DNA from: Chloroflexota bacterium
Lineage (GTDB): Bacteria > Chloroflexota > Limnocylindria > Limnocylindrales > CSP1-4
NCBI GenBank assembly: GCA_041691435.1
Contig: JBEPUS010000001.1
Location: 5,274-29,273 of the forward strand
DNA: 24,000 nt
Direction: 5' to 3'
The notes under the pieces were generated by a model, which saw only the letters and a list, made by a program, of their open reading frames with translations, ran no database searches and was not told the DNA's origin. The translations under genes were made by a program, and so were the position numbers. Of the stretch, positions 4,301-23,791 are shown one piece after another; position 1 is the stretch's first letter, and the number at the start of each line of letters is the position of its first letter.

Positions 4301-4370
4301 CAAGGGCAACGTGGCCGCCGTCGCGAGGACCCGCGACCGGGCGACCGCCCGTGGAAGACTCCGTCCGTGA
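1320..4370 (+). CDS. Multidomain signalling protein: zinc ribbon + class III adenylate/guanylate cyclase + P-loop STAND/AAA ATPase + TPR-like C-terminal repeats
   Basis: 1016-aa ORF. N-terminal CPACGHANPDVARFCASCGA (zinc ribbon). Cyclase motifs are VVFADVAGST, EKFIGDAVMAVFG, RIGVNTGDVVVG and GDAVNVAARLE. Walker A is IYGPPGIGKSRLA and Walker B-like is LVLVFEDIHWAE. A long helical Ala/Leu/Arg-rich C-terminus follows. The start may be ATG at 1326 rather than GTG at 1320. Confidence 0.9.
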   Translation: MAMRTCPACGHANPDVARFCASCGAALETFAGRETRKIVTVVFADVAGSTALGETLDPEALRQVMARYFTIAKASLEAHGASVEKFIGDAVMAVFGVPATHEDDALRAVRAAADLRAAMLTLNAELETSFGVSLHLRIGVNTGDVVVGTEERLATGDAVNVAARLEQAASPDEILLGHETRALARDAIEVEPARQVTVKGKSDPVVAYQLVRVIEGAAAFERRLDAPLIGRRAELDVIRAAFAAASVERRGQLVTIYGPPGIGKSRLAHEIAAELSEDARILVGRCLPYGEGITYWPLREIFAADGAEGELASALGSGGAEEVFLAVRKLIERRARVRPLVLVFEDIHWAEATLLDLIEHLVDWTREAPLLVLCLARPELLDQRPAWAAGRVNVGSLTLEPLDEVESGQLIEGLLGRATLDAAARRRIREVAEGNPLFVEQLVVTLAEGGDLERIPSTIQALLAARLDTLSESERDVLERGSVIGTEFEWEGLARLDAGGRRPTGALLSGLMRKELIRPNEAVDDGFRFRHALIRDAAYERISKGRRADLHERTADWLEGRDEDLDAVIGYHLEQAYRAVAELGRPGERGAGLAVRAAGRLGQAGLRAYARGDPVAGTNLLERAAELLPADDRRRIALLPFLGRALRLSGQMERAELILVDAIERGKAAGERGIAADAAVALVDLRFHRSAFTGVTRRDVFQQLDAAIQVFEETGDQAGLGRALCLGGKLRFWAGQAAASVRDFERAANVSRDSGDPAEEAEAIQGLIGAQFRGPMPVDVVQRTIVDLEARADLNQGLAAMLLETRAQLAAMGGDFETAREMIAKASAAPGVAPVTLERSRRALPAQGAVELLAGQPAAAERAFRPACEGMEQAGELGYLSSVAPLLVDALHEQGRDDEALEASNRWQVDRLTVPEDADAQLSWRRSRSKVLASLGQLTEAEQLAREAVAIAAGTDFLDDQGRAAADLGEVLWVAGNAAEAQAATEEAIRFFEIKGNVAAVARTRDRATARGRLRP

Positions 4371-4978
4371 TCGGGTCTGACGAACAGCTTTTGGCCCGGC
4401 GGGCGCTGCCCGCAGATCGCGAGCTCGTGACCACGATCGTGGCGCGGGCTTTCGCGGGCGATCCGCTCTGGAGCTGGGCGCTGCGTGCCGTGGATCGTGG
4501 CGCTGAGACGCGGCGAGAGTTCTGGCAGCTGATGGTCGACGGCGCGCTGCGCTACCCGTGGAGCTCGATCACGACCGGCGGAGAGGCCGTTGCGGTCTGG
4601 ATCCCGCCGGGCGAGGTTGAGCTAGCCAAAGACCAGGAGCAGCACATGAGGACGCTGGTTCGTGAGCACCTGGGCGAGAACGCTGCCGACGTCGAGGAGC
4701 TGCTGGCTCGCTTTGAGGCCGCTCATCCCCATGCCGAACCGTATTTCGCGCTGAGCCTGCTGGCCACGGATCCAGACCATCGCGGCCACCGGATCGGGAT
4801 GCGCCTGCTGGCCCTAGACCTGGAACGGATCGATGCTCAGCATCAGCCTGCGTACCTCGAATCCACGAATCCGGCGAACCTTGCGCGCTACCGCAGCGTC
4901 GGCTTCGAGCCGGTCGGGGAGTTCTCGTATCCGGGCGGCGGTCCCGTCGTGACCACGATGTGGCGACCGGCCCGCTGA
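4367..4978 (+). CDS. GNAT-family N-acetyltransferase
   Basis: 203-aa ORF. The acetyl-CoA-binding type segment HRGHRIGMRLL and the C-terminal YLESTNPANLARYRSVGFE are typical of GNATs. Its GTG start overlaps the cyclase stop (GTGA at 4367-4370), indicating translational coupling. Confidence 0.75.
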   Translation: MIGSDEQLLARRALPADRELVTTIVARAFAGDPLWSWALRAVDRGAETRREFWQLMVDGALRYPWSSITTGGEAVAVWIPPGEVELAKDQEQHMRTLVREHLGENAADVEELLARFEAAHPHAEPYFALSLLATDPDHRGHRIGMRLLALDLERIDAQHQPAYLESTNPANLARYRSVGFEPVGEFSYPGGGPVVTTMWRPAR

Positions 4979-5020: not shown

Positions 5021-5401
5021 GTGGCTGACGTGAGCAATGATTCGCTGATCGTCCGTGACCTGGCGACTCTCGAGCTGCCGCTGCGCAAGCTGGCTCCCTA
5101 CGACCGGCCGATCGGCATGCAGCTGCTCCACGAGGACACCCAGTCGGGTGTCGAGCTGTTCGTGGTCGAGTATCCGGCCGGCACGCAGGCAGCCCAGCAT
5201 CGACATGCGGCGGCGCACACGATGGTCGTCCTCGCGGGACAGCTGGAGGTCAACGGCGAGATCCTCGGACCAGGGTCCCTGTGCCGCATCCCCGCCGAGA
5301 CGCCCATGCACCACGCTCCCGCCGCGGGTGCCTCGTGCCGCTTCCTGATGATCTTCGAGGGCGAGTCCGACGTGACGGTCATCGACGACGACGCCGGCTA
5401 G
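5021..5401 (+). CDS. Cupin-domain protein
   Basis: 126-aa ORF, GTG start. The pattern GVELFVVEYPAGTQAAQHRHAAAHTMVVLAGQLEVNG...PAETPMHH fits a single cupin barrel with His ligand motifs. Confidence 0.7.
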   Translation: MADVSNDSLIVRDLATLELPLRKLAPYDRPIGMQLLHEDTQSGVELFVVEYPAGTQAAQHRHAAAHTMVVLAGQLEVNGEILGPGSLCRIPAETPMHHAPAAGASCRFLMIFEGESDVTVIDDDAG

Positions 5402-6754: not shown

Positions 6755-6829
6755 GCCGACATAGCTCAGCGGTAGAGCAGCTGTTTCGTAAACAGCAGGT
6801 CCTCGGTTCAAATCCGAGTGTCGGCTCCA
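6755..6829 (+). tRNA. tRNA-Thr (anticodon CGU), CCA encoded
   Basis: Manual cloverleaf. Acceptor GCCGACA/TGTCGGC gives 7 perfect pairs. D arm is GCTC-AGCGGTA-GAGC. Anticodon arm is GCTGT-TTCGTAA-ACAGC, placing CGT at positions 34-36. Variable loop is AGGTC. T arm is CTCGG-TTCAAAT-CCGAG. Discriminator T, then CCA. Total 75 nt. Confidence 0.93.
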
Positions 6830-7572: not shown

Positions 7573-8049
7573 GACGTCGGCGCGAAGGTCTTCCTGCTCG
7601 CCGGGCACGAGGACGGTCAGCTGCCGTTCTCGGCGATGCAGCGGTCCTCCCGAACGGATGACCCGGTGATCCGGGACTGCCTCGCCTGGATCGCAGACTG
7701 CTACGCGACATCGAATCCCGTCACGGCCATGACGGAGCGCTCGGGCCTCACCGGACGAACGTTCGCGCGCCGCTTTGCCGCGGCCACCGGTCGACGACCC
7801 ATCGAATACGTCCACGCGCTCAGGATCGAGGCGGCGAGACAGATCATCGAATCGGGTGTCGGGATGATCGAAGACGTCGGGCCGCACGTCGGCTACGAGG
7901 ATCCGACATTCTTCCGGCGTCTGTTCAGGCGAACGACGGGCGTGACGCCGGCCACCTACCGCCGCAAGTACGCGCCGATCGTCGCGAACCTGCGCCATGA
8001 CGAGGATCGGACGGCTGAGGGACGTGCGAACGCCAGAACGCACCTCTAG
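7573..8049 (+). pseudogene. C-terminal fragment of a GlxA/AraC-family regulator (HTH domains only; N-terminal DJ-1/PfpI-like domain missing)
   Basis: In-frame translation reads ...GAKVFLLAGHEDGQLPFSAMQRSSRTDDPVIRDCLAWIADCYATSNPVTAMTERSGLTGRTFARRFAAATGRRPIEYVHALRIEAARQIIESGVGMIEDVGPHVGYEDPTFFRRLFRRTTGVTPATYRRKY. This is the linker plus double HTH of GlxA-type AraC proteins. Upstream of about 7570 the frame is merely antisense to the oxidase. Confidence 0.7.
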
Positions 8050-8112
8050 CTCACGCCAGGACGATGATTAGGGCCAGTACGTTCGAGCCTTCATGTCAGG
8101 AGCGGTCAAGCG

Positions 8113-9618
8113 GTGAAGCCACTCGATCAATTCGAGCTCTGGTTCATGACCGGTAGCCAGGACCTGTATGGCGAGGCGACCCTTCGCCAGGTCGCGCTGG
8201 ACTCCGAGCGGATCGCCGCGGCCCTTGACGACTCGGCGGCGATCCCGGTGCGGGTCGTGTACAAGCCCGTGGTCAAATCGTCGGCGAGCATCGCCGCAGC
8301 GTGCACGGCGGCCAGCGCCGAGCCAGCATGCGTCGGCGTGATCGCCTGGATGCACACCTTCTCGCCGGCCCAGATGTGGATCGCCGGCCTGCAGGCCCTG
8401 CGCAAGCCGCTGCTCCACTTGCACACCCAGTTCAATCGCGACCTGCCCTGGTCGACGATCGACATGGACTTCATGAACCTGAACCAGGCCGCCCACGGCG
8501 ACCGCGAGTTTGGCCACATCGAGGCTCGGCTCGGTGTCGCTCGCAAGACCGTGGCCGGCCACTGGCAGGACCCGGCGGTCCAGGAGCGCATCGGGTCATG
8601 GTCGCGGGCTGCCAGCGGCTGGTCCGACCTGCATCGCCTGAAGGTCGCCCGTTTCGGCGACAACATGCGCGACGTGGCCGTCACCGAAGGCGACAAGGTG
8701 GAGGCCCAGGTCCGCCTCGGCGTCTCGATCAGCGGATTTAGCGTCAGTGAGCTCGGCGATGCCGCCCGTGCCGTGCCCACGGCGGACGTCGACCGGCTGA
8801 TCGACGAGTACGAGTCCAGCTATGTCCTGGCCGCGAGCCTCCAGGCTGGTGGCGACGACCGCGAGGCGCTGCGCGAGGCCGCCCGGATCGAGGTTGCGCT
8901 GCGCGCGTTCCTGGCCGAGCACGGGTGCGCCGCCTTCACCGACACGTTCGAGAATCTCGATGGGCTGGTGCAGCTGCCGGGGATCGCCGTGCAGCGGCTG
9001 ATGGCCGAGGGCTACGGGTTCGGGGCCGAGGGCGACTGGAAGACCGGCGTCATGGTCCGCCTCCTCAAGACCATGGCCCGCGGACTGCCTGGCGGGACGT
9101 CGTTCATGGAGGACTACACGTACCACCTCGACCCGGCCGGGCCCAAGGTCCTGGGCGCCCACATGCTGGAGGTCTGCCCGTCCATCTCGGACGGCCCGGT
9201 CTCGTGCGAGATCCATCCGCTGTCGATCGGCGGTCACGCCGATCCCGTCCGGCTCGTCTTCGACGCGGGCAGCGGGCCGGCCGTGATCGTGGCCCTGATG
9301 GATATGGGCGAGCGCCTCCGACTCGTGGCCAATGAGGTCGACCTCGTGTCGCCCGACGCGCCCATGCCCCGGTTGCCGGTGGGCCGGGCTGTCTGGAAGC
9401 CGCGTCCGAACCTGACCACGGCGACCGAGGCCTGGCTGATCGCCGGCGGCTCGCACCACACCGCCCTGACCCGGGCCCTGACCATCGAGCCGATCGCCGA
9501 CTTCGCCGAGATGGCCCGCCTCGAGCTGCTGACGATCGATGCAACCACCACCGTGCCCGCATTCACCCGCGAGCTACGCTGGAACCAGGCCTACTACCGC
9601 CTGGCGCGAGGGCTCTAG
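8113..9618 (+). CDS. araA: L-arabinose isomerase
   Basis: 501 aa, colinear with E. coli AraA as I recall it: [107 protein letters not shown] lies 10 nt upstream of the GTG start. Confidence 0.95.
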
Positions 9619-10623: not shown

Positions 10624-12111
10624 TCAGCTGCCGGGTAACGCGAAGAGGCAGACCTGTGCGCCGCCCCACGCCACGCACGCGACCGCGCGTCGGGCGGCCC
10701 AGGCTGCCGGGTGGAGATCGACCCAGCTGGGCGTATCCCCGGACTGCCCTGGAGCGGCCACCACCCAGCGAACGCCGCGGCTCGTATAGAGGTCACCCGC
10801 ATTCACCTTGCCGCCGGCCCAGACAATCAGCGTCGTCGCGCGGGCCGTCATGGCCAGAAGCGGCGAGTAGGCGCCCTGGACGACGGCGCCCGCCGGCAGG
10901 ACGACCGCGATGTGCGCCTGGTCGGATTGCATCGTGCTCGGCGTCACGGTCATCCAGTGCACGTCGAGCAGCAGGCCGGGCGCCACCAGGGCGCCCAGAA
11001 CGAGGGCCAACACGAGAGTGCGAGCCCGGCGAGGAGCGCGCCGCGGTATCCCGGTTCTGGCGATGACCGCAGATCCGAGCCCCACGATGGCGGCTAGCGC
11101 CGGGAGGAGTGGGACCACATAGCGGTTCGGCCGGTAGGCCACGAGGAACAGGATCCCGAAGCCAGTGACGAGCCAGCAAATCGACAGCACCATGAGACGC
11201 CGCTCGGATGTCGAGAGGCGAGACCAGTGGGCGACGCCAACGGCCGCGGCGATCATGGCGCCAACCAGTAGCGGCGCGGCCAGGGGCCACGCACCATCGC
11301 TGTGAACGAGATACCCCGCCACACGCTTCAGCAGGTCGCCCGGCGACGCGGGCAGCGGTTCGGGTGGGAGTGTCGAAAGCACCGCCGGCAGCTGGCCCAG
11401 GTTGGGCAGCCCTACGACAATGAGCCAGCCGAGGCCGCAGAGCCCCAAGCCGGTCACGCAGCCGACCAGCCAGCGGCGTTCGCATGGATCTCGGATCGCC
11501 ATGATCAGCGCCCCTGCCAGGATGCCACCGCCCGAAACGATGGCGCTCGCCTTCGTCCCGATTGCCAGGGCGAGGGCAATTCCGGCAAGGACGCCCAGAC
11601 CGAAGCGGCGATCGGGATCCCCGCGAACCGCGAGCAGGAGAACCATCACGAGAAAGAGGGTCTCGACCGGTTCGAGGAACGCCAGGCGACCGTAGTACAG
11701 GACGAGCGTCGAAGTGCCGAACGCCAGTGCCGCAACCAGCGCCGGCCCGCGGCCAACGATCGTGCGGAGGCCGATGGCGATCACGGCCACCGTCAGCCCA
11801 GTTGCGAGAATCGCCACGATGCGGGCCTGCACGATCCCAATGCCGAGAACGCCAAAGGCCGCGGCGACGGCCAGGCTGAACGGCGCGGTGATGAGCTGCA
11901 GGTTGTAGTCGTCGGTTGACCATCGCCCGAGCAGGACGAGGTTGCGGGCGTTCACGACATGCCAGGCCTCGTCCGTGAACGGGCTCGCGCTTGCGGTCAC
12001 GCCCGTTGGCGGGTCGACGCGCACGAACCCGAGCAGGAGAAGTCCAACCCCCGCCGCCGCGATCATTCCGGGCAGCCAATCGGCGGCCTTCGAAGCTGCC
12101 CTGCTGTGCAC
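10624..12111 (-). CDS. GT-C fold membrane glycosyltransferase (ArnT / PMT_2-like)
   Basis: 495 aa with about 11-12 hydrophobic helices. Early loop is SPFTDEAWHVVNARNL (Asp-Glu type motif). YYGRLAFLEPVETLF and IGTKAS are typical of dolichyl/undecaprenyl-phosphate-sugar-dependent transferases. A soluble C-terminal domain follows. GTG start lies 8 nt after the kinase stop. Confidence 0.8.
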   Translation of the reverse strand: MHSRAASKAADWLPGMIAAAGVGLLLLGFVRVDPPTGVTASASPFTDEAWHVVNARNLVLLGRWSTDDYNLQLITAPFSLAVAAAFGVLGIGIVQARIVAILATGLTVAVIAIGLRTIVGRGPALVAALAFGTSTLVLYYGRLAFLEPVETLFLVMVLLLAVRGDPDRRFGLGVLAGIALALAIGTKASAIVSGGGILAGALIMAIRDPCERRWLVGCVTGLGLCGLGWLIVVGLPNLGQLPAVLSTLPPEPLPASPGDLLKRVAGYLVHSDGAWPLAAPLLVGAMIAAAVGVAHWSRLSTSERRLMVLSICWLVTGFGILFLVAYRPNRYVVPLLPALAAIVGLGSAVIARTGIPRRAPRRARTLVLALVLGALVAPGLLLDVHWMTVTPSTMQSDQAHIAVVLPAGAVVQGAYSPLLAMTARATTLIVWAGGKVNAGDLYTSRGVRWVVAAPGQSGDTPSWVDLHPAAWAARRAVACVAWGGAQVCLFALPGS

Positions 12112-12119
12112 CAGCTGGA

Positions 12120-13082
12120 CTAGTGAACGCGGGGCAGGGCGAGGCGGAACGTAGAGCCGCTGCCGGGCTGACTGGCCGCCGTGAGGTGGCCGCCTGACCG
12201 CTCTGCAAGGCTGCGGGCAATCGCCAGGCCAAGGCCATTGCCCGCGGGGCTGCCAGCATCGGCTCGCACCCGGTAGAACGGCTCGAAGATCCGGTCCAGG
12301 TCGGGCGAGGCGATCCCCGGGCCACGGTCGGCAACCTCGACGATCGCCTCGCGGTCCGTGGCAGACATTGTGACCTGGACTGCCACCGACGGCCCCCCGT
12401 AGCGCACGGCATTGTCGAGAAGGTTGAGCAGAATTCGATCGCAGCTGTCCGGCTCGCCACGAACCCGGAGGTCGGGCACGAGGTTCACCCGGATGGGCTC
12501 GGAGCCCGGGTGTGCCGTGCGAAATGTCCCGATGGCCTCGGCCACCGCCACCGATAGGTCGAATGGCTCGCGCACCGGGTTCATGAGCCGGTCGCCGGTG
12601 CTCGCGAGGACGAGCAGATCGTTCGTGATCTTCGTCAGTCGCTCGGCCGCGGCGATGATCCGGACCATGTCCGCCCGAAGGTCAGCGGGCCGCACGCTCG
12701 GCTCCAGACCACTCTCCGCGGTTGCCCGAATCGCAGCCAGCGGCGTGCGCATCTCGTGCGAGGCATCGGCGACGAAGCGCCGCTGACGCGCATGTGCATC
12801 ACGAATCGGTCGCAGGGTTCGATTGGCAAGGACCCAGGCGACACCGCCCACGAGTCCGATCGTGAGCACATTCGCAACGACCAGGGCAATCCCCACGCGT
12901 TGGAGCGCGACCTGGTAGGCAAGCCCCGCCGCCTGTGTCGAGGAGAGGTCCGGCGCGACATCGAACGCCGGCCCCAACACCGTCCGGAACGCGACGTAGA
13001 AGATGATGCTGAAGAGCCCGAACACCAACGCAAACAGCGTGAGATACAGGAGGGTGAGGCGACGGCGCGCGCGCTGGAACAT
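12120..13082 (-). CDS. Sensor histidine kinase (two TM helices, short external loop, no HAMP; HisKA + HATPase_c)
   Basis: 320 aa. H-box is FVADASHEMRTPLAAI. N-box is LLNLLDNAVRY. G-boxes are DRGPGI and GNGLGLAIA. The H-box starts about 20 residues after TM2. The start overlaps the response regulator stop. Confidence 0.9.
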   Translation of the reverse strand: MFQRARRRLTLLYLTLFALVFGLFSIIFYVAFRTVLGPAFDVAPDLSSTQAAGLAYQVALQRVGIALVVANVLTIGLVGGVAWVLANRTLRPIRDAHARQRRFVADASHEMRTPLAAIRATAESGLEPSVRPADLRADMVRIIAAAERLTKITNDLLVLASTGDRLMNPVREPFDLSVAVAEAIGTFRTAHPGSEPIRVNLVPDLRVRGEPDSCDRILLNLLDNAVRYGGPSVAVQVTMSATDREAIVEVADRGPGIASPDLDRIFEPFYRVRADAGSPAGNGLGLAIARSLAERSGGHLTAASQPGSGSTFRLALPRVH

Positions 13083-13834
13083 CAGGTTGCCGTATCGGGC
13101 GCGCTGCGCAGGCGGTACCCAGATCCTCGAACCGTCTCAATCAGCCCGTTACGCCGCCCCTCGTCCACCTTGCGTCGAAGGCTACGGATGTACACCTCGA
13201 CGACATTCGATTCGGCCACGAAGTCGGCGTTCCAGAGGGCATCCAGCAGTCGATCCTGGGTGAACAGTTGACCGGCGTTGCTCGCGAGCAGCTCAAGGAG
13301 GGCGAATTCCCGGGTCGTGAGCAGGATCTCACGACCCGATCGCGTGACCCGCATTTCCGCCGGCAAGAGGACGAGATCGCCCACGCTGATCGAGGCGGCG
13401 CGCTCCGTGCCGAGCCGTCGTCGCAGGGCGCGGAGCCGGGCACGGAGCTCCGCAACGGCGAATGGCTTGGCGAGATAGTCATCGGCTCCCTGGTCGAGGC
13501 CGTTTACGCGGTCCTCGATGCTGTCCCTGGCCGTCAGCATCAGGATCGGCGCTGTGAACCGCGCCGCCCGCAGGCGTCTGCACACCTCGAACCCGTCGAG
13601 GCTGGGCAGGAGCACGTCGAGGATGACCAGGTCATACCGATACGTGTCGACCCAGCGCAGCGCCTCCAGTCCGTCGCCCACGATGTCGACCGCATGGCCA
13701 TCTGAGGCCAGGACCACCTTCAGGCCGTCGGCGATGGCGGCCTCGTCTTCCACGACCAGGATTCGCAGCTCGCTTCTCCCAGGCTCGGCCACTTCAGCGA
13801 CAGGCTGCACCGAGGGTGATCCTAGCCCCGTCAT
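13082..13834 (-). CDS. OmpR/PhoB-family response regulator
   Basis: 250 aa. Receiver domain is RILVVEDE...DLVILDVLLPSLDGFEV...PILMLTA...KPF. Winged-helix C-terminus is LTTREFALLELL...VEVYIRSLRRKV...IETVRGSGYRL. Confidence 0.92.
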   Translation of the reverse strand: MTGLGSPSVQPVAEVAEPGRSELRILVVEDEAAIADGLKVVLASDGHAVDIVGDGLEALRWVDTYRYDLVILDVLLPSLDGFEVCRRLRAARFTAPILMLTARDSIEDRVNGLDQGADDYLAKPFAVAELRARLRALRRRLGTERAASISVGDLVLLPAEMRVTRSGREILLTTREFALLELLASNAGQLFTQDRLLDALWNADFVAESNVVEVYIRSLRRKVDEGRRNGLIETVRGSGYRLRSAPDTAT

Positions 13835-16372: not shown

Positions 16373-17179
16373 TCAACCAGACGCGATGTCTCGCCTGCCG
16401 AATGCAATCAAGCCGAAGAGGGCGAACCCAACGGCAGGCAGCGCCAATGCCGCATATCGCCAGAATTCGGTGGGCGTGATCAGTGGATTCCCACCAAGGG
16501 CCCAGTACCAGGGCGACAACTGGCGCCACGGCGCCAGGGCGTCGACGAGGGGGAGCAAGGCAGCCCCGAAGTACCCGGCCAAGGCAACCGCGATCGCAAT
16601 ACCGAGAACCGCTGGCGGACGAGCCATTGCTCCTGCGGTCGCAATCGCGATGGCCCCATGGAAGAGCCCCAGGAGCATGCACAGGATGATCGTCGACAGG
16701 AGGAGACTGACGTCGATTGCCAGGCCCACAAGCCCGTCGGCGACCAGCTGGGCAACGGCCATTGCTGCGGTGATCAGGGTCAACCCGATCAGCACTGCGA
16801 TTGCCCGAGCGAGCAACACGGCCCGGTGGTCGACCGACTGCGCGAGGATCAGCTCCATGCGGCCGCTCGTCTCTTCCGACGCGGTCTGGCCCATGACCAG
16901 GCTGATGGCGGCAAGGGTCAGCAGCAGAGGGATGAATAGTTCGTAGAGGTTGCCGCGAAGGTAGCCGGCAGGCGTGTTGAAGTCCTGGAGCCCGAGGGCC
17001 TGCACCAACCCGCCTGGCAGCTGGTCGATAGCGCTGGAGATACCCGACGTTCCCCTGAACGCCGGCCAGAATGCGACGGTGGCTGCGATCAGGGCAGCAA
17101 GGCCTACCGACCACCACAGGACTGCCCGGCGCATTGCCCGCAGCGGAATCGCGACGAGCTCCGCGAACCTGCCCATCAT
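16373..17179 (-). CDS. ABC-2 type exporter permease
   Basis: 268 aa, six hydrophobic segments. The ...GQTASEETSGRMELILAQSV... motif after the first external loop is typical of ABC-2 family permeases. The start overlaps the ATPase stop (ATGA). Confidence 0.85.
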   Translation of the reverse strand: MMGRFAELVAIPLRAMRRAVLWWSVGLAALIAATVAFWPAFRGTSGISSAIDQLPGGLVQALGLQDFNTPAGYLRGNLYELFIPLLLTLAAISLVMGQTASEETSGRMELILAQSVDHRAVLLARAIAVLIGLTLITAAMAVAQLVADGLVGLAIDVSLLLSTIILCMLLGLFHGAIAIATAGAMARPPAVLGIAIAVALAGYFGAALLPLVDALAPWRQLSPWYWALGGNPLITPTEFWRYAALALPAVGFALFGLIAFGRRDIASG

Positions 17180-18072
17180 TCGCTCTCCGCGTAAAGATCG
17201 AGAAATGCCTCCTCGAGGTCCGGCTCCTCCACGAGGAGCGTATTGACCCGACAGCGGGCGAGGAACTCGATGAACGGCTGGATTGGACCCGAGAGCGTCG
17301 CGGTGAAGCGCCGATCGTCGAGGAGCGGGTCGACCAAGCCCGACACGGCCGTGAGGGCCTCCGCGGGTGGTGGGTCCTCGAACCAGACTTCAATGCGCTG
17401 GCGAGCGCGGCCCCGGAGGTCAGCGACGGTACCCTCGATCACGACCTTGCCGGCGCGGAGCACGGCAACGCGGTCCGCGGCCCGCTGGACCTCGCTCAGG
17501 ACGTGCGATGAGAGGAAGACGGTGGTCCCGTGAGAACGAGCCTCACGAACGAGTGCCAGGAACTCGTGCTGGATCAGCGGATCGAGGCCGTTCGTCGGCT
17601 CATCGAGCACGAGGAGCTCGGAGCCCGAGACGAATGCCAGGAGCAGCGCCACCTTCCGCCGATTGCCCGTCGACAGGTCGCGAACCTGCCGCTCGAGATC
17701 GAGATCGAGACGCGCGGCGATCTCATCTCGGCGGCGGGAATCGAATCCGCCGCGCAACCGCCCTATGCTCGCGACGAGTTCGAAACCCGTCGTGCGCTCC
17801 GGCAAGCGCAACTCGCCGGGGATGTACCCGATCCTCGCGCGCACAGCGACGCCTTCAGTTGTGGCGTCCACGCCGAAGGCCGTGACGTGCCCGGCCGTTG
17901 GTCGGAGCAGGCCCATCAGACAGCGGAGGGTGGTGCTCTTGCCCGATCCGTTCGGACCAAGCAAGCCGAGCACCTCGCCGCGCACGACCTCGAGATTGAT
18001 CCCCTGGACCGCCTCGATGGCTCCGAAGCGCTTGATGAGGCCGTCGAATCGAACGAGCTTGTCGTCGCTCAT
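17176..18072 (-). CDS. ABC transporter ATP-binding protein
   Basis: Walker A GPNGSGKST, Q-loop, signature LSTGNRRKV, Walker B LLVLDEPTNGLD, H-loop SSHVL, plus a C-terminal extension domain. I prefer ATG at 18072 (MSDDKLVRFDGL...) over the TTG at 18105 used by the track. Confidence 0.92.
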   Translation of the reverse strand: MSDDKLVRFDGLIKRFGAIEAVQGINLEVVRGEVLGLLGPNGSGKSTTLRCLMGLLRPTAGHVTAFGVDATTEGVAVRARIGYIPGELRLPERTTGFELVASIGRLRGGFDSRRRDEIAARLDLDLERQVRDLSTGNRRKVALLLAFVSGSELLVLDEPTNGLDPLIQHEFLALVREARSHGTTVFLSSHVLSEVQRAADRVAVLRAGKVVIEGTVADLRGRARQRIEVWFEDPPPAEALTAVSGLVDPLLDDRRFTATLSGPIQPFIEFLARCRVNTLLVEEPDLEEAFLDLYAESE

Positions 18073-18117
18073 CGACCGGTAACGATCACAGCCAAACCAG
18101 CTCAACCTTGCTCTTGG

Positions 18118-18131
18118 TTGTCACGTGACAA
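18118..18131. promoter_or_regulatory. Perfect 14-bp palindrome TTGTCACGTGACAA upstream of the ABC exporter operon (motif site A)
   Basis: Read directly. It lies 46 nt upstream of the ATPase ATG, in the 91-nt gap after the antiporter stop. It has the same TTGTC-N4-GACAA architecture as sites at 19710, 20498 and 22629. Confidence 0.5.
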
Positions 18132-18163
18132 TCATATCTCGGGTGCGCCGACCCGGGAGCCTG

Positions 18164-19384
18164 CTAGTCGTCGGTCGGAGCACTCGCCCGCAACGCCCGT
18201 CCGATCACGGCATCCGCCGTCGACCCTTGGACAAGCAGCGTGAACAGGACCACCCCGTACACGGTCGCGGCGATCAGCTCGCGATCCGGGAGATCGACGG
18301 GCAGCGACAGGACAAGGGCGACAGAAACGGCGCCGCGCAGGCCCGCCCAGAACAGGACGTGCAGCCACGCGACGGGTGCAATCGTGCGCCTTCCGCGGGC
18401 GATGAGCCGGCTGGCGCCACCGAGCACGACGTAGACCACCAGGGCCCGCGACACCAGCACTGCGGCGACTGCCCACGCGATGGCGCCGAGGTCGCCGACG
18501 AGTGCGTTGATGTCGATCACGAGCCCAATGAGCAAGAAGATCAACGCCGTGAGCACGAAAGCCAGCAACTCCCAGACGAGGTCGATGGATGCGGCGGCCC
18601 GCGGGCTCAGGCCATGGGCCCGGCCGTACGAACCAAGCGTGATCCCGGCCGCGGTCGTCGCGATCACGCCGGAGCCGTGCAGGGCGTCCGCGCCAAGGTA
18701 AGCGCCATAGGCGAGCACGAGCGAGATCGTGAGCTCCACCAGGTAGTCGTCTGTCAGGCGGAGAACGCGGGTTGCAATCCAGCCTGCGGCACCGCCCAGG
18801 AGAGTGCTCCCCGCGACCACGAGCACGAACCGGACGAAGCCCTCGGCGATCGAACCCGAACCGGCCGTCGCGGCGATGACGATCGAAAAGATGACGATCC
18901 CGGTACCGTCGTTGAGCAGGCTCTCGGCCTCGACCGCCGTCGACAGCCGCCGAGGCGTGGAGAGTCTCCTGAACGTCGAGATGACGGCCGCGGGGTCAGT
19001 GGCTGCCACCATCGCCCCGACGATAAAGGCCGACGCGATGGCCAGTCCGGTCGCGACGTGCAGGACGACGGCCACGACAGTCGCCACGATGAGGACACCC
19101 GGAATCGCCAGGAAAAGCACGCCGACCAGCGCCGGGCGGAGCTCGACGACATCGATCCGGAACGCCGCTTCGAAGATCAATCCCGGCAGCAGGACCGCAA
19201 GCACCAGGTTGGGCGTGATCAGGACGCCCAAGCCCGGGCGGACGAGCGCGACCCCGAGGCCGAGCAGCACGAGACCGACCGTGTAGGGCACGCGAATTCG
19301 ATCCGTCACCATGGCAACGACGACGGCCGCCCCGAGAAGGGCGACAACGGCGCGGATCGCACTCAGGGCGAGGTCGTCCGTCAT
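18164..19384 (-). CDS. Cation:proton antiporter, CPA1 (NhaP-type Na+/H+ exchanger) membrane domain
   Basis: 406 aa and polytopic. Contains FIVGAMVAATDPAAVISTF and AESLLNDGTGIVIF, the conserved TDP and ND motifs of CPA1 exchangers. Confidence 0.9.
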   Translation of the reverse strand: MTDDLALSAIRAVVALLGAAVVVAMVTDRIRVPYTVGLVLLGLGVALVRPGLGVLITPNLVLAVLLPGLIFEAAFRIDVVELRPALVGVLFLAIPGVLIVATVVAVVLHVATGLAIASAFIVGAMVAATDPAAVISTFRRLSTPRRLSTAVEAESLLNDGTGIVIFSIVIAATAGSGSIAEGFVRFVLVVAGSTLLGGAAGWIATRVLRLTDDYLVELTISLVLAYGAYLGADALHGSGVIATTAAGITLGSYGRAHGLSPRAAASIDLVWELLAFVLTALIFLLIGLVIDINALVGDLGAIAWAVAAVLVSRALVVYVVLGGASRLIARGRRTIAPVAWLHVLFWAGLRGAVSVALVLSLPVDLPDRELIAATVYGVVLFTLLVQGSTADAVIGRALRASAPTDD

Positions 19385-19442
19385 GGCGCCGAGTATGAGC
19401 GGTGAGGGTTGCCGGACGCGTCGCGACGACGCCCGGGGAATC

Positions 19443-19480
19443 GATGCAGGGCGGGCGCCGATCGGCGCCCGCCCTGCATC
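19443..19480. terminator. Perfect 38-bp GC-rich palindrome (hairpin) between flp1 and the antiporter gene
   Basis: GATGCAGGGCGGGCGCCGA / TCGGCGCCCGCCCTGCATC are exact reverse complements centred on CGATCG. It begins 14 nt after the flp1 stop on the minus strand and sits 59 nt upstream of the antiporter ATG. No U-tract. Confidence 0.6.
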
Positions 19481-19493
19481 CGGTGCGGCGAGA

Positions 19494-19673
19494 CTAGACG
19501 CTGTGGCCGACGTTGCTCAGGATCTTGGAGACCTGCCCGCCCAGGAAAATCAAGGCGATGATGGCGACGATCGCGATCAGTGCGAGGATGAGGGCATATT
19601 CAGCGAGACCCTGGCCTCGATCGGTCGGCCAAATTCGAGGCATGCTAGCGACGATCCGGTTGATACGGTCCAT
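19494..19673 (-). CDS. flp: Flp/Fap-family type IVb prepilin (flp1)
   Basis: MDRINRIVASMPRIWPTDRG/QGLAEYALILALIAIVAIIALIFLGGQVSKILSNVGHSV carries the G-x4-EY Flp motif followed by a hydrophobic helix. The ATG at 19673 has GGAG 6 nt upstream. The track ORF extends to an alternative ATG at 19718. Confidence 0.75.
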   Translation of the reverse strand: MDRINRIVASMPRIWPTDRGQGLAEYALILALIAIVAIIALIFLGGQVSKILSNVGHSV

Positions 19674-19700
19674 ACCACGCTCCAGATGAATGAAGGTAGA

Positions 19701-19723
19701 GACAAATACTTGTCTCATGACAA
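19701..19723. promoter_or_regulatory. Overlapping inverted repeats GACAA-ATAC-TTGTC-TCAT-GACAA in the flp1/marR divergent region (motif site B)
   Basis: TTGTCTCATGACAA occupies 19710-19723, and GACAAATACTTGTC occupies 19701-19714. The site is 34 nt upstream of the marR ATG and 37 nt upstream of the flp1 ATG (19673). Confidence 0.5.
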
Positions 19724-19756
19724 TGACCTGACGAGTATCGCCGATCGGACGGCGGA

Positions 19757-20194
19757 ATGACAGACGCCGATAGTCCTGTTCTCGATCTGCTCGATCGGCT
19801 GTCCATTGAACTCGTCGCGATCACGAACCGAGCGATTGCCGAGGGCGGCGTGCTTGACCTGTCCTTCCCCCAGTGGCGGCTGTTGGCGGCACTTGGGGAC
19901 GCACCGCATGCGCTCCGGCTCCATGAAGTGGCCGAGCAGGTCAGCGCCTCGATGCCTTCGGCCAGCAGGCTCGTTCAGCGGATGGAACGCCGGGGTTTTG
20001 TCTCGAGCACCCGCGCCCCGAGCGACGGCCGAGGACGGGAGATTGCGCTGACCGCGCACGGCGAATCTGTCCGTGCGGGCGTCATCGGCCGGCGCCGAGC
20101 CCTGATCGCGGCGGGCATCGGCGAGCTCGCGGGAAACGCGAAGGTGCACCCGGACCTCGTGGCGATCGTGGAGCGCCTCGCACGTCGGAAGTGA
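19757..20194 (+). CDS. MarR-family transcriptional regulator
   Basis: 145 aa. LSFPQWRLLAALGDAPHALRLHEVAEQVSASMPSASRLVQRMERRGFVSSTRAPSDGRGREIALTAHG is the winged-HTH and wing pattern (D.R...L T..G) of MarR proteins. Confidence 0.88.
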   Translation: MTDADSPVLDLLDRLSIELVAITNRAIAEGGVLDLSFPQWRLLAALGDAPHALRLHEVAEQVSASMPSASRLVQRMERRGFVSSTRAPSDGRGREIALTAHGESVRAGVIGRRRALIAAGIGELAGNAKVHPDLVAIVERLARRK

Positions 20195-20197
20195 CGG

Positions 20198-20506
20198 TCA
20201 GGGCTTGGGCGTCTTGGTCGGCTTTGGCGTCTTGGTCGGCTTGGGCGTAGGCGTTGCCTTGGGAGTTGCCGTCGGCCTTGGCGTTGGACCGGTCGTCGCC
20301 GCGGGTCCGAACCCGGAGCTGACCGATGCCAACACAGTGCCGATGCCACCGCTCATGACGGTCATCGCCGAGATCGCCAGGACTGCGATCAGCGCGAGCA
20401 CGATTGCATACTCGGCCATGCTCTGGCCGGCTCGTGCTCGGCCACGTCGACACGCAGCGGCACCCGAACGACGAGGGCCCGGCGGGTGGATTGGTAGTTG
20501 TTGCAT
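20198..20506 (-). CDS. flp: Flp-family prepilin with a C-terminal Pro/Thr/Lys-rich repeat extension (flp2)
   Basis: MQQLPIHPPGPRRSGAAACRRGRARAG/QSMAEYAIVLALIAVLAISAMTVMSGGIGTVLASVSSGF has the same G-x4-EY motif and helix as flp1. It is followed by GPAATTGPTPRPTATPKATPTPKPTKTPKPTKTPKP. The only in-frame canonical start is ATG at 20506. Confidence 0.7.
   Translation of the reverse strand: MQQLPIHPPGPRRSGAAACRRGRARAGQSMAEYAIVLALIAVLAISAMTVMSGGIGTVLASVSSGFGPAATTGPTPRPTATPKATPTPKPTKTPKPTKTPKP
20201..20291. repeat. Degenerate 18-bp tandem repeat (about 5 units) encoding the PT(K) tail of flp2
   Basis: Units are GGGCTTGGGCGTCTTGGTC, GGCTTTGGCGTCTTGGTC, GGCTTGGGCGTAGGCGTT, GCCTTGGGAGTTGCCGTC and GGCCTTGGCGTTGGACCG. 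The first two are near-identical (PTKTPK PTKTPK on the coding strand). Confidence 0.6.
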
Positions 20507-20511
20507 GACAA
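20498..20511. promoter_or_regulatory. TTGTTGCATGACAA, one mismatch from TTGTC-N4-GACAA, overlapping the flp2 start codon (motif site C)
   Basis: Read directly. The flp2 ATG (complement of 20504-20506) lies in the centre of the repeat. Confidence 0.4.
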
Positions 20512-20542
20512 CCAGATCATGCGATGGGACGACGCGGTGGGT

Positions 20543-22609
20543 CTATAGGACTTTCGGCGGGGAGACCGTCAGCGGCGGCTCCAGTTCCGTGTCTGGGAGT
20601 GTCGTGGCCGCCAGGAGTGAATCGAGCTCGGCGCGCCCGCTGGGCACGGCAAAGAGCGCTAGCCGGTCGCCGACGAGGAGCGTGAGGTCACCGCGCGGAA
20701 CGATCACCCGATCGCCGCGTTCCACCGACACGAGGAGCGTGTCACGTGGCCAGGGCGCGCTGGCTACAGTCTCGCCGGCCAGCCGCGAGCCCGCTCGAAT
20801 CTCCGCTTCAACCAGCTGACCCGTCGGCCCCACGGAGCGGATCCCTCGGACGTTGCTTGCCAGCGCACTGCGATAGGCGCTCATGACGTCGCCGCTCGAG
20901 AGAATCCCGACCAGTCGATCGCCCGCGACCACTGGAATCCAGCTCCGATGCTGGTCCGTGAGCGCGCCGAGTGCCTCGACCATCGGATCGTCGGCGGACA
21001 CGATGCGATCGTCCAGACGCTGGTCCCCGACGGTCTCGTCACCGTCCGCCGCCCGGAGATCGGTGAGCTCGATCGATCCCTGGAAACGCCCGGTCCTGTC
21101 GACGACCGGCGCACCCGGCAGGTCTGCCGCGCTCAACCGACTGATGGCGGTCGCGATGGTATCTGAAGGGTGGAGCGTGAGACGCGCCGCCCGGGCGGCA
21201 GCCCCGGCCCCGATCGAAGCCATCAGCGGCAGCGCTCCGCGGAACCGATGGGCAGGCGAGTCCGCCCGGCTGCGGAGCTGCTCTGAGTAGATTGAGCGGT
21301 CGCCGACGATCAGGGTCGCGATGCCGATCGCCAGCATGGCTGGAGCCAGCATTGCGAGGCTGTCGGTCATCTCCGCGACCATCAGCATGACAGCAAGGGG
21401 CGCGTGGGCGACGCTTCCGAAGAGGGCCATCATCGCAACGATCACGAACGGCGATGGATCGATGGGCAGCCCCGGGGCGATTGGCTCCAGGAGTCGCCAG
21501 ATCCCAGCCCCAAGCAGTCCGCCAATGACCATCCCCGGGCCGAAGACGCCGCCCGAACCGCCCGAGCCGATCGACAGCGAAGTGGCCAGGATTCGCGCGA
21601 ACGGCAGGGCCAGGACGACCCATAACGGCAGCCCGAGCAGGGTCGTCCGATCGAGCCCGGCCTGGACCCATCCGTAGCCGGTCCCCAGGACCCCAGGGAG
21701 GGCGAGCCCGATAGCCCCGACCACGATCCCGGCCAGCGCCGGCCGGAGCATGCGCGGCATCGACCAACCGCCGATCCAGCGGGTGAACCCATAGAAGCTC
21801 GCGATGTACAACCGACCGACCAGTCCGCAGGCAAGTCCGATCAGCCCGTAATAGAACAGCTGGCGGGCATCGGTGAAGCCAGCTCCTGCCACCTGCCCGA
21901 AAATCGGCGCGAAGCCGAGGACCGCGCCAAAGATCGAAAATGCCACGATCGAGGCGACGAAGGCCGGCACGAGGGCGTCGGATTCGACGTCTTCCCGGTA
22001 CGGAATCTCCGCCGCCAGAACCGCCCCCCCGAGCGGTGCCCGGAAGATCGCACCGATGCCCGCGCCCATCCCGCAGCTGACGGCGATTCGGGCATCCCGC
22101 GCGTCGAGATCAAGGAGGCGGGCGAGGAACGATCCGAATCCGGCGCCGATCTGGGCCGTGGGACCCTCGCGCCCGCCCGATCCACCCGAGCCGATCGTGA
22201 TCGCGGATGCGACGAGCTTCACGAGTGGGATCCGCGTCCGGATGCCGCGAGGGTCATGGTGGATCGCCGCGATCGCAGCGTCGGTGCCGTGGCCCTCCGC
22301 TTCTGGTGCGAACCGGAAGACGATCACGCCGGCGATCAATCCTCCCAGACCCACGACGAGCGGGATCGCCCAGGGCCGGGCCGCCGAGGTGATCGGCGCG
22401 GATCCTTCGCCGAAGGGGGAGGCAGGCGTGAACCCAGCGAGGACGCCCAGCATGGCCCTGGTGGCCAGGTCGAGCGCTCCAAAGAAGACGATCGCCCCAA
22501 CGCCGCTGATCAGCCCGATCAAGGCACCGAGAATGATCCACTTGCGGAGGTAATCGGCCGATCGAATCTGTCTCCGAAGCCTCAGAAGGAGACCGTTGGC
22601 CGGGATCAA
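20543..22609 (-). CDS. ClC-family chloride channel / H+-Cl- exchanger with C-terminal CBS pair and TrkA-C (RCK_C) domain
   Basis: 688 aa. Selectivity-filter motifs are GSGGREGP, GIGAIFRAPLGG and GSGGVFGP. Two CBS-like units follow (PVVDRTGRFQGSIELTDL and IPVVAGDRLVGILSSGDV). Next is VEAEIRAGSRLAGETVASAPWPRDTLLVSVERGDRVIVPRGDLTLLVGDRLALF (TrkA-C). TTG is the only canonical start upstream of the conserved YLRKWIILG. Confidence 0.92.
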   Translation of the reverse strand: MIPANGLLLRLRRQIRSADYLRKWIILGALIGLISGVGAIVFFGALDLATRAMLGVLAGFTPASPFGEGSAPITSAARPWAIPLVVGLGGLIAGVIVFRFAPEAEGHGTDAAIAAIHHDPRGIRTRIPLVKLVASAITIGSGGSGGREGPTAQIGAGFGSFLARLLDLDARDARIAVSCGMGAGIGAIFRAPLGGAVLAAEIPYREDVESDALVPAFVASIVAFSIFGAVLGFAPIFGQVAGAGFTDARQLFYYGLIGLACGLVGRLYIASFYGFTRWIGGWSMPRMLRPALAGIVVGAIGLALPGVLGTGYGWVQAGLDRTTLLGLPLWVVLALPFARILATSLSIGSGGSGGVFGPGMVIGGLLGAGIWRLLEPIAPGLPIDPSPFVIVAMMALFGSVAHAPLAVMLMVAEMTDSLAMLAPAMLAIGIATLIVGDRSIYSEQLRSRADSPAHRFRGALPLMASIGAGAAARAARLTLHPSDTIATAISRLSAADLPGAPVVDRTGRFQGSIELTDLRAADGDETVGDQRLDDRIVSADDPMVEALGALTDQHRSWIPVVAGDRLVGILSSGDVMSAYRSALASNVRGIRSVGPTGQLVEAEIRAGSRLAGETVASAPWPRDTLLVSVERGDRVIVPRGDLTLLVGDRLALFAVPSGRAELDSLLAATTLPDTELEPPLTVSPPKVL

Positions 22610-22628
22610 GTCGCGACCACATGGCTAG

Positions 22629-22642
22629 TTGTCATCAGACAA
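22629..22642. promoter_or_regulatory. TTGTCATCAGACAA upstream of the ClC gene (motif site D)
   Basis: Read directly, 20 nt upstream of the ClC TTG start. On the gene strand it reads TTGTCTGATGACAA, close to site B (TTGTCTCATGACAA). Confidence 0.5.
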
Positions 22643-22756
22643 ATGGTAGAGGTTGATTGGTCAACTTGGCGTTGCCTCGCCGGAGTGATGTCGAGACATT
22701 CACTCGTTCCACGGCGAGATGGGACATCGGGCGCGGCGGGCCGGAGCTCGGTGCGC

Positions 22757-23791
22757 CTAAGGTCCGGACTGCCGCCGCTGGTCGCGCCACGTTGCGGGTG
22801 CGGCCGCGGTTGAGCGCTTGAACGCCCGGCTGAACGCCGCTTCGGACTCGTAGCCCACGTGCGCGGCGACTTCAGCCACGGTCACGTCGCCCTCGCTGAG
22901 CCGGCGCGCGGCGAGCTGCATGCGCCGCCCGGCCAGGTAGCGCATCGGTGGCTCACCCACGAGCCGGGTGAATCGCTCGGCCAGGGTGGTCCGCGAGGCA
23001 CCCGCTTCGCGGGCCAGGGCAGCCAGGGTCCACGGCTCGGCGAGACGCTCATGCAGCAGGGCCAGCGCTCGCCCAACCACCGGATCGCGCAGCCCACCCA
23101 TCCAGTCCGCGTCGGTTGGCAGTCGATCAGGAGCCGGGCTCGCCAAGTGGAGGCGAAGCGTCTCGATGAAAATCGATTCGCTCAGGCGTTCGCGCACCGA
23201 CGCGCCACCGGCGCCGTTCACCTCAGCCAGCGCCAGGTCCACCAGGTCGCGGAGCCGGCCGCTGGCCGCTCGAATGACGAGCATCGGTGGCAATGCCCGC
23301 AGCATCGGATCGAAAGGAGGCACGTCGCACCCCAGGAACCCGCACACGAAACGCGTCTGCTCGAGTCCATTGGGCGCAAGGCCCGAGTTCGGCGGGACCG
23401 CCCCGGACAAGAGGCTGGCGAGGAAGTCCACCATCTGGGTCGCGTCCGCGCTGCCCAGGCGGGGTCGCAGGTCCGGCGCCAGGAAATACGCATCGCCACG
23501 GGGGTAGACGACGACATCCCCGGCTTCCAGGCGCACAGCCGATCCGTCCTCCAGTCCGGTCCAGCACGTGCCTGCCACGAGGACGTGGTACGAGAGCACG
23601 ATCTGGGTGCTCGACCCCATGCCGCTCGACAGGGACGCGCCCTTCGGAACGCGAATCGCCGGCCAAAGGGAAGGGGCATCGACGGTGTAGTAGAGCGCGC
23701 GCGTGAACCGGACCGTCCGGAGTACGACCGAGAGGAGATCTTCCGCCACAAGAACCGGACGCTCCGGCACAAGGACCGGACGCTGGGTCAT
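22757..23791 (-). CDS. AraC-family transcriptional regulator with N-terminal cupin-like sensor domain
   Basis: 344 aa. The N-terminal half is cupin-like (GDVVVYPRGDAYFL). The C-terminal double HTH reads LAALAREAGASRTTLAERFTRLVGEPPMRYLAGRRMQLAARRL...VAEVAAHVGYESEAAFSRAFKRSTAAAPATWR. Confidence 0.88.
   Translation of the reverse strand: MTQRPVLVPERPVLVAEDLLSVVLRTVRFTRALYYTVDAPSLWPAIRVPKGASLSSGMGSSTQIVLSYHVLVAGTCWTGLEDGSAVRLEAGDVVVYPRGDAYFLAPDLRPRLGSADATQMVDFLASLLSGAVPPNSGLAPNGLEQTRFVCGFLGCDVPPFDPMLRALPPMLVIRAASGRLRDLVDLALAEVNGAGGASVRERLSESIFIETLRLHLASPAPDRLPTDADWMGGLRDPVVGRALALLHERLAEPWTLAALAREAGASRTTLAERFTRLVGEPPMRYLAGRRMQLAARRLSEGDVTVAEVAAHVGYESEAAFSRAFKRSTAAAPATWRDQRRQSGP

Follow-up and report, generated by a model that had tools for sequence, protein, structure and literature searches.

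The stretch of DNA analyzed here, 24,000 nucleotides of contig JBEPUS010000001.1 from a Chloroflexota bacterium (the window), has a G+C content of 68% and carries a cluster of genes for a small MarR-family regulator, two Flp-like prepilins (flp1 and flp2), a ClC channel, an ABC-2 exporter, a Na+/H+ exchanger and an AraC-type regulator. Gene calls were backed by Pfam and NCBIfam scans, and marR is the sole plus-strand gene in the mapped set that runs from the ABC-2 permease to the AraC-type regulator (Table 1). Our subject is a palindrome, TTGTC-N4-GACAA, that recurs in 5′ regions around marR and is probably the operator of the encoded protein. It had been picked out in an earlier note on the same DNA, whose gene calls agree with Pfam and which left the Na+/H+ exchanger unmentioned. 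The nearest relatives of the MarR protein (90% and 76% identity) are encoded on contigs of Candidatus Limnocylindrales metagenome-assembled genomes (Chloroflexota), and the ClC and ABC orthologues bear the same taxon names.

Searching the window for the pattern TTGTCNNNNGACAA with up to one mismatch returned exactly four matches, all in 5′ regions and all where the earlier note had placed them. By chance 0.28 matches were expected (standard deviation 0.57; dinucleotide-preserving shuffles, n = 100), in keeping with that note's estimate of well under one, and none of the 100 shuffles reached four. The distances it gave from sites A, C and D to the ABC, flp2 and ClC start codons were also reproduced. 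The 12-bp core TGTC-N4-GACA occurred three times in the window against 0.41 expected. Allowing two mismatches added six further matches, with 4.8 matches expected at that setting; these six appear to be chance matches, and all of them that could be assigned a place on the gene map are within coding regions, so that the claim of no other paired copy in the 24 kb stands. Isolated half-sites do occur, as had been stated (TTGTC nine times and GACAA 16 times across the window). One of them, the GACAA at 19701-19705, overlaps into site B, giving a composite of three half-sites that form two overlapping palindromes. Site C, read on the flp2 strand, is TTGTC-ATG-CAACAA, and the exchanger gene, which sits between flp1 and site A, has no palindrome of its own.

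Table 1. Genes, palindromes and promoter-like hexamers of the window, followed by MarR2 genes of related loci (positions within each locus) and by other genes of the window.
Feature	Position	Strand	Remarks
ABC-2 permease	16373-17179	-	overlaps the ATPase gene by 4 nt; Pfam ABC2_membrane_2/3 weak, below cut-off
ABC transporter ATPase, DrrA-like ABC-2 subfamily	17176-18072	-	Pfam ABC_tran 96 bits
Site A, perfect palindrome TTGTCACGTGACAA	18118-18131		3′ of the exchanger, between its stop and the ABC start; about 46 nt 5′ of the ABC ATPase ATG (18072)
TATGAT, -10-like hexamer	18131-18136	- (ABC strand)	last T is the first T of site A; putative promoter role
Na+/H+ exchanger (CPA1)	18164-19384	-	Pfam Na_H_Exchanger 194 bits; NCBIfam a_cpa1
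38-bp perfect palindrome	19443-19480	-	between flp1 stop and exchanger start; 100% complementary
flp1, 59-residue Flp-like prepilin	19494-19673	-	Pfam Flp_Fap 17.7 bits, below the cut-off of 32.2
Composite site B, GACAA-ATAC-TTGTC-TCAT-GACAA	19701-19723		three half-sites, two overlapping palindromes
Site B core TTGTCTCATGACAA	19710-19723		within the 83-nt flp1/marR divergent region
GATACT, putative flp1 -10	19734-19739	-	10 nt upstream of the operator
marR, 145 residues	19757-20194	+	Pfam MarR_2 47.0 bits (cut-off 27), MarR 37.1 bits (cut-off 24.6)
flp2, 102-residue Flp-like prepilin	20198-20506	-	Pfam Flp_Fap 20.7 bits, below the cut-off of 32.2
Site C TTGTTGCATGACAA, one mismatch	20498-20511		centred on the flp2 ATG (20506-20504)
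ClC channel with CBS pair and TrkA_C	20543-22609	-	Pfam Voltage_CLC 294 bits, CBS, TrkA_C
Site D, perfect palindrome TTGTCATCAGACAA	22629-22642		20 nt 5′ of the ClC TTG start (22609)
TACCAT	22643-22648	-	directly upstream of site D, one base further out than the TAnnnT at site A
AraC-type regulator	22757-23791	-	from the Pfam and NCBIfam scans
MarR2, L007	4901-5335
MarR2, L012	4293-4716
MarR2, L037	7579-8013
MarR2, L038	8104-8529
MarR2, L040	3552-3977
1016-residue zinc-ribbon/adenylate-cyclase/STAND-ATPase/TPR protein	1320-4370		without palindrome
tRNA gene	6755-6826		without palindrome
PMT_2-type glycosyltransferase	10624-12111		without palindrome
OmpR-type two-component pair	12120-13834		without palindrome

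Related loci, designated here by L numbers, were collected along two routes. Loci anchored on MarR comprised three genome loci, 25 metagenome loci recovered with a profile of 21 MarR homologues, and several contigs reached by exact-protein look-up, whereas ClC/ABC loci were fetched through ClC orthologues and ABC ATPase orthologues and then scanned for the motif. Near-duplicate loci were removed before sites were counted, leaving 119 kb of MarR-anchored sequence, and the counts cover the window, these 119 kb and 90 kb of ClC-fetched sequence, that is, fetched loci rather than complete genomes. The MarR-anchored loci contained 14 perfect sites (0.04 expected) and 23 at up to one mismatch (1.1 expected); the ClC-fetched loci contained five perfect sites (0.02 expected) and seven at up to one mismatch (0.6 expected). 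Nearly all of these sites lie in the 5′ regions of the same few gene families, and the motif recurs at orthologous positions over about 30 loci despite diverged intergenic surroundings, with no extended repeat body around it. Within the fetched loci the motif is thus not the dispersed repeat that, according to the earlier note, would have counted against its proposal. The sites are non-random and conserved, and they co-occur with orthologues of marR, flp, ClC and ABC genes.

The flp1/marR divergent region is where this conservation can be followed furthest. In about 25 non-redundant Candidatus Limnocylindrales loci, MarR orthologues (41-90% identity) almost always adjoin a Flp-like gene with the same palindrome, and nearly every orthologue at 51-90% identity has a perfect copy a few tens of bases 5′ of its start, in a divergent region shared with the flp1 orthologue. 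In more than 20 loci whose flanks are otherwise unrelated, the distance from the site to the marR start is no more than about 35-50 nt; in the window, site B lies 34-47 nt 5′ of the ATG. When 14 distinct flp1/marR intergenic regions were anchored on the site, the sole strongly conserved block was GGACAAaTAcTTGTCc.aTGACAAT.AC, plus a GA.T.Ta box; the block reads GGACAA-aTAc-TTGTCc-N3-TGACAA-T, and the rest of each intergenic region has diverged. The half-sites are invariant across orthologues and the central 4-nt spacer is free (TCAT, CGAT, CTAT, CATC, CTCT or GTAT), which argues for a dimeric DNA-binding protein, because a base-paired RNA would instead co-vary. In one locus (L034:10273-10295) the flp1/marR operator reads GGCAA-ATAC-TTGCC-CGAT-GACAA, its first two half-sites having changed symmetrically (A to G, T to C), which suggests that the outer GACAA-N4-TTGTC pair functions as a dyad in its own right. 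The genes flanking the flp-marR pair vary by lineage (BTAD-STAND regulator, DnaG, HtrA, MMPL, exchangers), leaving marR and flp as the only constant companions of the site. Site and marR also co-vary across orthologous loci, a check that the earlier note had proposed: the 14 regions share the block, and the MarR homologues at 35-40% identity that have no flp neighbour (L003, L028 and L030-L032) have no full palindrome.

At flp2-type genes the palindrome takes in the start codon itself. In nine loci (the window, L002, L007, L009, L016, L019, L024, L025 and L033) these genes begin inside it as (G)TTGTC-ATG-CRR-CAA, with an upstream half-site that is non-coding and invariant and a downstream half-site that supplies codons 2-3 (Gln, Glu or Arg, then Gln). 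A second copy of the palindrome lies 17 bp downstream of the flp2-type site in L009, L016, L029 and L033. We considered a leaderless flp2 mRNA and set it aside, the -10-like hexamer being in the required register in L033 and L019 but not in the window, L007, L009, L024 or L025. A start of flp1 at an ATG inside site B was also rejected: although no stop interrupts that frame in the window, one does so in L002, and the ATG itself is missing from most orthologues. The flp1 start is set at 19673, behind a GGAG.

The two transporter units extend the pattern away from the pilin genes. The ClC protein combines a Voltage_CLC domain with CBS and TrkA_C domains and has the GREGP gating-glutamate motif, which places it among ClC proteins, and its orthologues in Limnocylindrales are very many (66-82% identity). 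In the putative ABC-2 exporter the ATPase is clear, and the permease hits ABC2_membrane_2/3 only below cut-off; orthologues of the permease carry recorded ABC2_membrane_2 matches. We rejected the idea that the exporter is a NatAB-type Na+ pump, which would have given a link to NaCl stress: NCBIfam returned only generic ABC ATPase matches for the ATPase (drrA best, then PmtA and NodI, all below cut-off) and no match for the permease.

Sites before ClC and ABC are kept in several other genomes, which supports what was the most speculative part of the earlier note's proposal. In L035, whose ClC is 79% identical, a perfect TTGTCACATGACAA lies 25 nt 5′ of the ClC ATG, and the surrounding 8 kb contain neither marR nor flp, an arrangement suggestive of regulation in trans. 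In L034, on a 3.1-Mb contig, a perfect site lies between the divergently transcribed ABC and ClC genes, a flp1-marR pair follows just downstream of ClC, and L033 has TTGTCATATGGCAA, with one mismatch, 38 nt before ClC. The closest ABC orthologue (75% identity, L041) is preceded by cTTATGA-TTGTCATATGACAA-CCAAA, 47 nt before an ABC-ABC2-ClC operon, and site A of the window, gaTATGA-TTGTCACGTGACAA-CCAAG, matches it almost base for base; the near-identical flanks tTATGA-TTGTCAYRTGACAA-CCAA are found both in L041 and between ABC and ClC in L034. Two more distant relatives have degenerate forms: L026 carries the core TGTCATCAGACA, identical to that of site D, between marR and ClC, and in L029 a tandem pair of sites separates marR from a ClC-like gene. 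The exception is L002, where only one half-site is left before ClC.

In many relatives the ClC(-ABC-ABC2) operon instead has a regulator of its own as its first gene, a paralogous MarR (MarR2) that is 35-38% identical to the flp-linked MarR. No palindrome was found where MarR2 heads the ClC/ABC module (L007, L012/14, L037, L038/39 and L040), and L036 has a degenerate version; the MarR2 upstream regions bear other inverted repeats, such as TAGCCAGGTGGCTA in L007. This either/or distribution of palindrome and MarR2 is what would be expected of a palindrome that provides a MarR-type input in trans, and it seems that, by way of sites A and D, the flp-linked MarR of the window has assumed the role of MarR2. 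A candidate second MarR before ClC in L002, an open reading frame at 7914-8357, turned out not to be a MarR. In L012 (4734-5438) and L014 (7127-7831), the ClC copy 3′ of MarR2 has a large internal deletion, such that only residues ~5-198 and 632-675 align, and is probably a pseudogene or remnant.

Two further sites occur in L034. An extra perfect site at 4645-4658, with the identical 22-nt CTTATGATTGTCACATGACAAC, lies 92 nt 5′ of a gene for a STAS (SpoIIAA-like) domain protein, and a weaker one, with two mismatches, lies at 5045 between an 87-residue gene and a Na_Ca_ex gene. The genes at these two sites are possible further members of the regulon.

The MarR protein exceeds the cut-offs of both Pfam families that describe it (Table 1). 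Its PDB matches all belong to the MarR family (HosA, OhrR, PcaV and SlyA), with a best E-value of 1e-6, which amounts to only remote similarity. Across the 21 MarR homologues the recognition region SASMPSASRLVxRMERRG is nearly invariant, so that a near-invariant DNA-reading region matches the invariant half-sites. An own-promoter palindrome, as predicted for an autoregulated MarR protein, is present as site B and its equivalents in nearly all orthologous loci. Having no cysteine, the protein is unlikely to be switched by thiol oxidation in the manner of OhrR.

The operators stand close to promoter-like hexamers. At several of them the last T of a TAnnnT hexamer is the first T of the operator: TATGAT at site A, in L041 and at two L034 sites, TATCCT in L035, TATGCT and TATTCT in L033, and TATGGT in L019. 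At flp1 the column aligned with the putative -10 box reads TAGAAT, TACAAT, TATAAT or TACACT in orthologues. Transcription starting about 7 nt past a flp1-type box would leave the operator covering the start and the first ~25 transcribed bases, a repressing position.

We propose, with a probability of roughly 0.78, that TTGTC-N4-GACAA is the operator of the MarR protein encoded at 19757-20194 and that this protein represses a small regulon; MarR as the binder, repression as its effect and the promoter positions are what we infer from the arrangement of the sites. Each recognition helix of a MarR dimer would sit on one of two 5-bp half-sites, spaced 9 bp centre to centre. At site B, with three alternating half-sites just 3′ of the flp1 -10-like box and between both start codons, bound MarR would shut off flp1 and marR itself, as in classical autoregulation. 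The single operators elsewhere abut TATGAT (ABC-2 exporter), follow TACCAT (ClC) or lie astride the flp2 start codon, and at these sites A, D and C MarR would occlude the -10 box, the transcription start or early transcription. The four units would form one small repressed regulon in which a signal acting on MarR releases repression, and the Na+/H+ exchanger would join only through read-through past the hairpin 3′ of flp1. The proposal of the earlier note, that MarR controls its own gene together with flp1, flp2, the ABC-2 exporter and ClC, thus finds support in the comparative analysis of sequences, and the in-silico checks that it suggested, as applied to the fetched loci, all came out in its favour.

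Several observations weigh against this proposal. All of its support is inference from sequence. A sigma-70 consensus scan of 17900-22900 found no promoter, so that the -10 assignments are based only on conserved TAnnnT hexamers that have no -35 partners, and at flp2-type sites the -10-like hexamers do not keep a constant register. The ClC-type site of L026 has its conserved flank inverted relative to ClC. L002 is the closest different species, and there the ClC site is reduced to a single TTGTC half and MarR2 is absent too, indicating that membership of ClC in the regulon is not universal. Finally, a similar PSASRLV helix is present in MarR homologues at 39-40% identity that lack the motif, and the helix alone is therefore no predictor of the site.

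That last observation would also be expected if the operator were real and bound by another transcription factor encoded elsewhere, for example a global regulator of envelope or ion homeostasis, with marR a mere target. The perfect trans-acting site before ClC in L035 and the extra perfect site before the STAS-domain gene in L034 fit such a factor. However, the site holds the textbook position for MarR autoregulation, ~35-50 nt from the marR start, in the more than 20 loci with unrelated flanks, no other regulator gene is consistently linked to it, and it is missing where ClC/ABC has a MarR paralogue of its own, which suggests a MarR-type input; we regard a foreign binder as unlikely. MarR could instead bind and activate or anti-silence, as SlyA and RovA do, some MarR-family proteins being activators of surface-structure genes. 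The lack of a detectable canonical -35 at these promoters, a common feature of activator-dependent ones, agrees with this. Against it, the sites overlap or directly follow -10-like hexamers and probable starts, and the flp2 site covers the start codon; such positions are typical of repression and not of class I or class II activation, and activation has in our judgment little chance of being the right account.

Action at the RNA level, with small 5′-leader hairpins tuning how the mRNA is translated or how stable it is (flp2, with its AUG in the loop, being the most plausible case), would make use of the fact that all four sites are transcribed if the promoters lie upstream. The fixed position of the flp2-type start codon inside the palindrome in nine loci speaks for it, as does the A-to-G variant CAGCAA (L007 and L025), which still permits a U-G pair. 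The predicted hairpins are weak, however (-4.3 to -8.2 kcal/mol, stems of 5-7 bp), and Rfam gave no match at its curated gathering threshold. Moreover, half-sites that are invariant rather than co-varying, around a free loop, are the signature of protein-DNA contact, and divergent genes share the one element in either orientation (L034, site B), which together make an RNA element very improbable. A functionless chance cluster, or fragments of a dispersed repeat, deserves almost no credence. The motif is short, with 10 specified bases, and A/T-rich words concentrate in the intergenic DNA of a sequence with 68% G+C, which whole-window shuffles model incompletely; but the shuffles never produced four matches, and neither the recurrence at orthologous positions in ~30 loci nor the absence of a repeat body would follow from such an origin.

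Flp1 has the leader MDRINRIVASMPRIWPTDRG, followed by QGLAEY and a hydrophobic helix (processing motif ...DRG/QGLAEYALILALIAIV...), and Flp2 has an Arg-rich leader followed by G/QSMAEY (processing motif ...RAG/QSMAEYAIVLALIAVL...) and a C-terminal TPKPTK repeat tail. The diagnostic prepilin G/XXXXEY motif, followed by a hydrophobic helix, is present in both, and the motif is kept in all orthologues. Both proteins missed the gathering score of Flp_Fap (Table 1), and NCBIfam gave no match. Neither the 24-kb window nor the fetched loci yielded any tad/cpa assembly genes (TadV/CpaA peptidase, CpaF/TadA ATPase, TadB/C).

More than 15 loci encode a mature Flp1 peptide that is the same or almost the same. 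The 39-residue sequence QGLAEYALILALIAIVAIIALIFLGGQVSKILSNVGHSV is identical in the window, L015-L018, L033 (12044-12193) and L034 (10062-10235) and nearly so in other loci, in genomes whose Flp1 leaders are wholly different and whose MarR proteins are only 51-60% identical; such conservation is unusually strong for a pilin. Flp2-type proteins (window 20198-20330; L007, L009, L016, L019, L024 and L033) share the C-terminal Pro/Thr/Lys tail (TPKPTKTPKP...), which is atypical for Flp pilins and could be a linker or a glycosylation region. A cation exchanger lies directly 3′ of flp1 on the same strand in two cases, Na+/H+ in the window and Na_Ca_ex in L033 (10972-11946), and exchangers adjoin marR in L009 and L010. 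Between flp1 and the exchanger of the window, the 38-bp palindrome would fold as RNA with an energy of -42.2 kcal/mol but lacks a U tract; it is probably a terminator or attenuator setting the ratio of pilin to exchanger expression, and the exchanger may be reached by read-through from flp1.

A more speculative reading, to which we would give low odds, is that the Flp-like peptides have a role other than, or besides, building a Tad pilus: they would be small membrane peptides that work with ClC, the ABC-2 exporter and the Na+/H+ or Na+/Ca2+ exchangers, the whole making up a module for ionic or osmotic stress controlled by a MarR that senses ions. It would fit the near-identity of the 39-residue Flp1 despite 51-60% identical MarR proteins, the exchangers behind flp1, the lack of tad genes nearby and the ion-transport neighbourhoods, and a functional tie of Flp1 to ion transporters rather than to a pilus is weakly suggested.

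The analysis yields a well-supported regulon prediction in an uncultured lineage and no new regulatory principle. If confirmed, the regulon would be among the first for Candidatus Limnocylindria, an abundant uncultured class of freshwater, soil and peat Chloroflexota, and it would offer a compact testable system of one small protein and a 14-bp site. It would tie Flp-type pilin expression to chloride, cation and ABC transport, hinting that they answer to one common signal, for example ionic strength, pH or the choice between attachment and planktonic life. Our literature search found no paper on MarR control of Flp pilins or ClC channels, nor on regulation in Limnocylindria; the earlier note's impression that a MarR circuit of pilins and ion transport is without precedent holds in the sense that the searchable literature showed none.

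Among known systems, the Tad/Flp loci (Aggregatibacter flp-tad, Caulobacter cpa) likewise encode small prepilins with G/XXXXEY and then a hydrophobic helix, and differ in having the assembly genes that neither the window nor the fetched loci contain; the present proteins also score below the Flp_Fap cut-off, mature Flp1 is unusually conserved, and Flp2 has its long Pro/Thr/Lys tail. The MarR2-ClC(-ABC-ABC2) operons of the same lineage share orthologous ClC and ABC-2 genes and a dedicated MarR-family regulator, but there MarR2 is the co-transcribed first gene, only distantly related to the flp-linked MarR, and TTGTC-N4-GACAA is absent. The contrast between a trans-acting operator and a dedicated MarR2 would be a clean natural case of regulator displacement for one transporter module. 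PapX, SlyA and RovA are proteobacterial proteins of the MarR/SlyA type that act on chaperone-usher fimbriae, flagella and invasin genes, often as anti-silencers. They likewise link a MarR-family protein to pilus-type genes, whereas here the genes encode Flp/Tad-type prepilins in Chloroflexota, the geometry suggests plain repression, and ion transporters would be co-regulated.

The closest likeness in design is to E. coli MarR/marO and to OhrR-ohrA, HucR and MepR, in which a small single-domain winged-helix protein faces a divergent target across a short palindromic operator at the promoter; autoregulation is expected here as well, and additional operators lie before transporter genes. To our knowledge, the half-site found here (TTGTC/GACAA with an N4 spacer) is unlike the operators of characterised MarR-family proteins, and so is the composite of three half-sites. 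Where those systems control a drug-efflux or peroxide-defence operon, the predicted targets here are Flp-like pilins, ClC and an ABC-2 exporter. The arrangement is thus a classical MarR design with an unusual cargo, namely two Flp-like genes, a ClC channel, an ABC-2 exporter and perhaps a cation exchanger, and its three-half-site autoregulated operator and the operator astride a start codon are also unusual.

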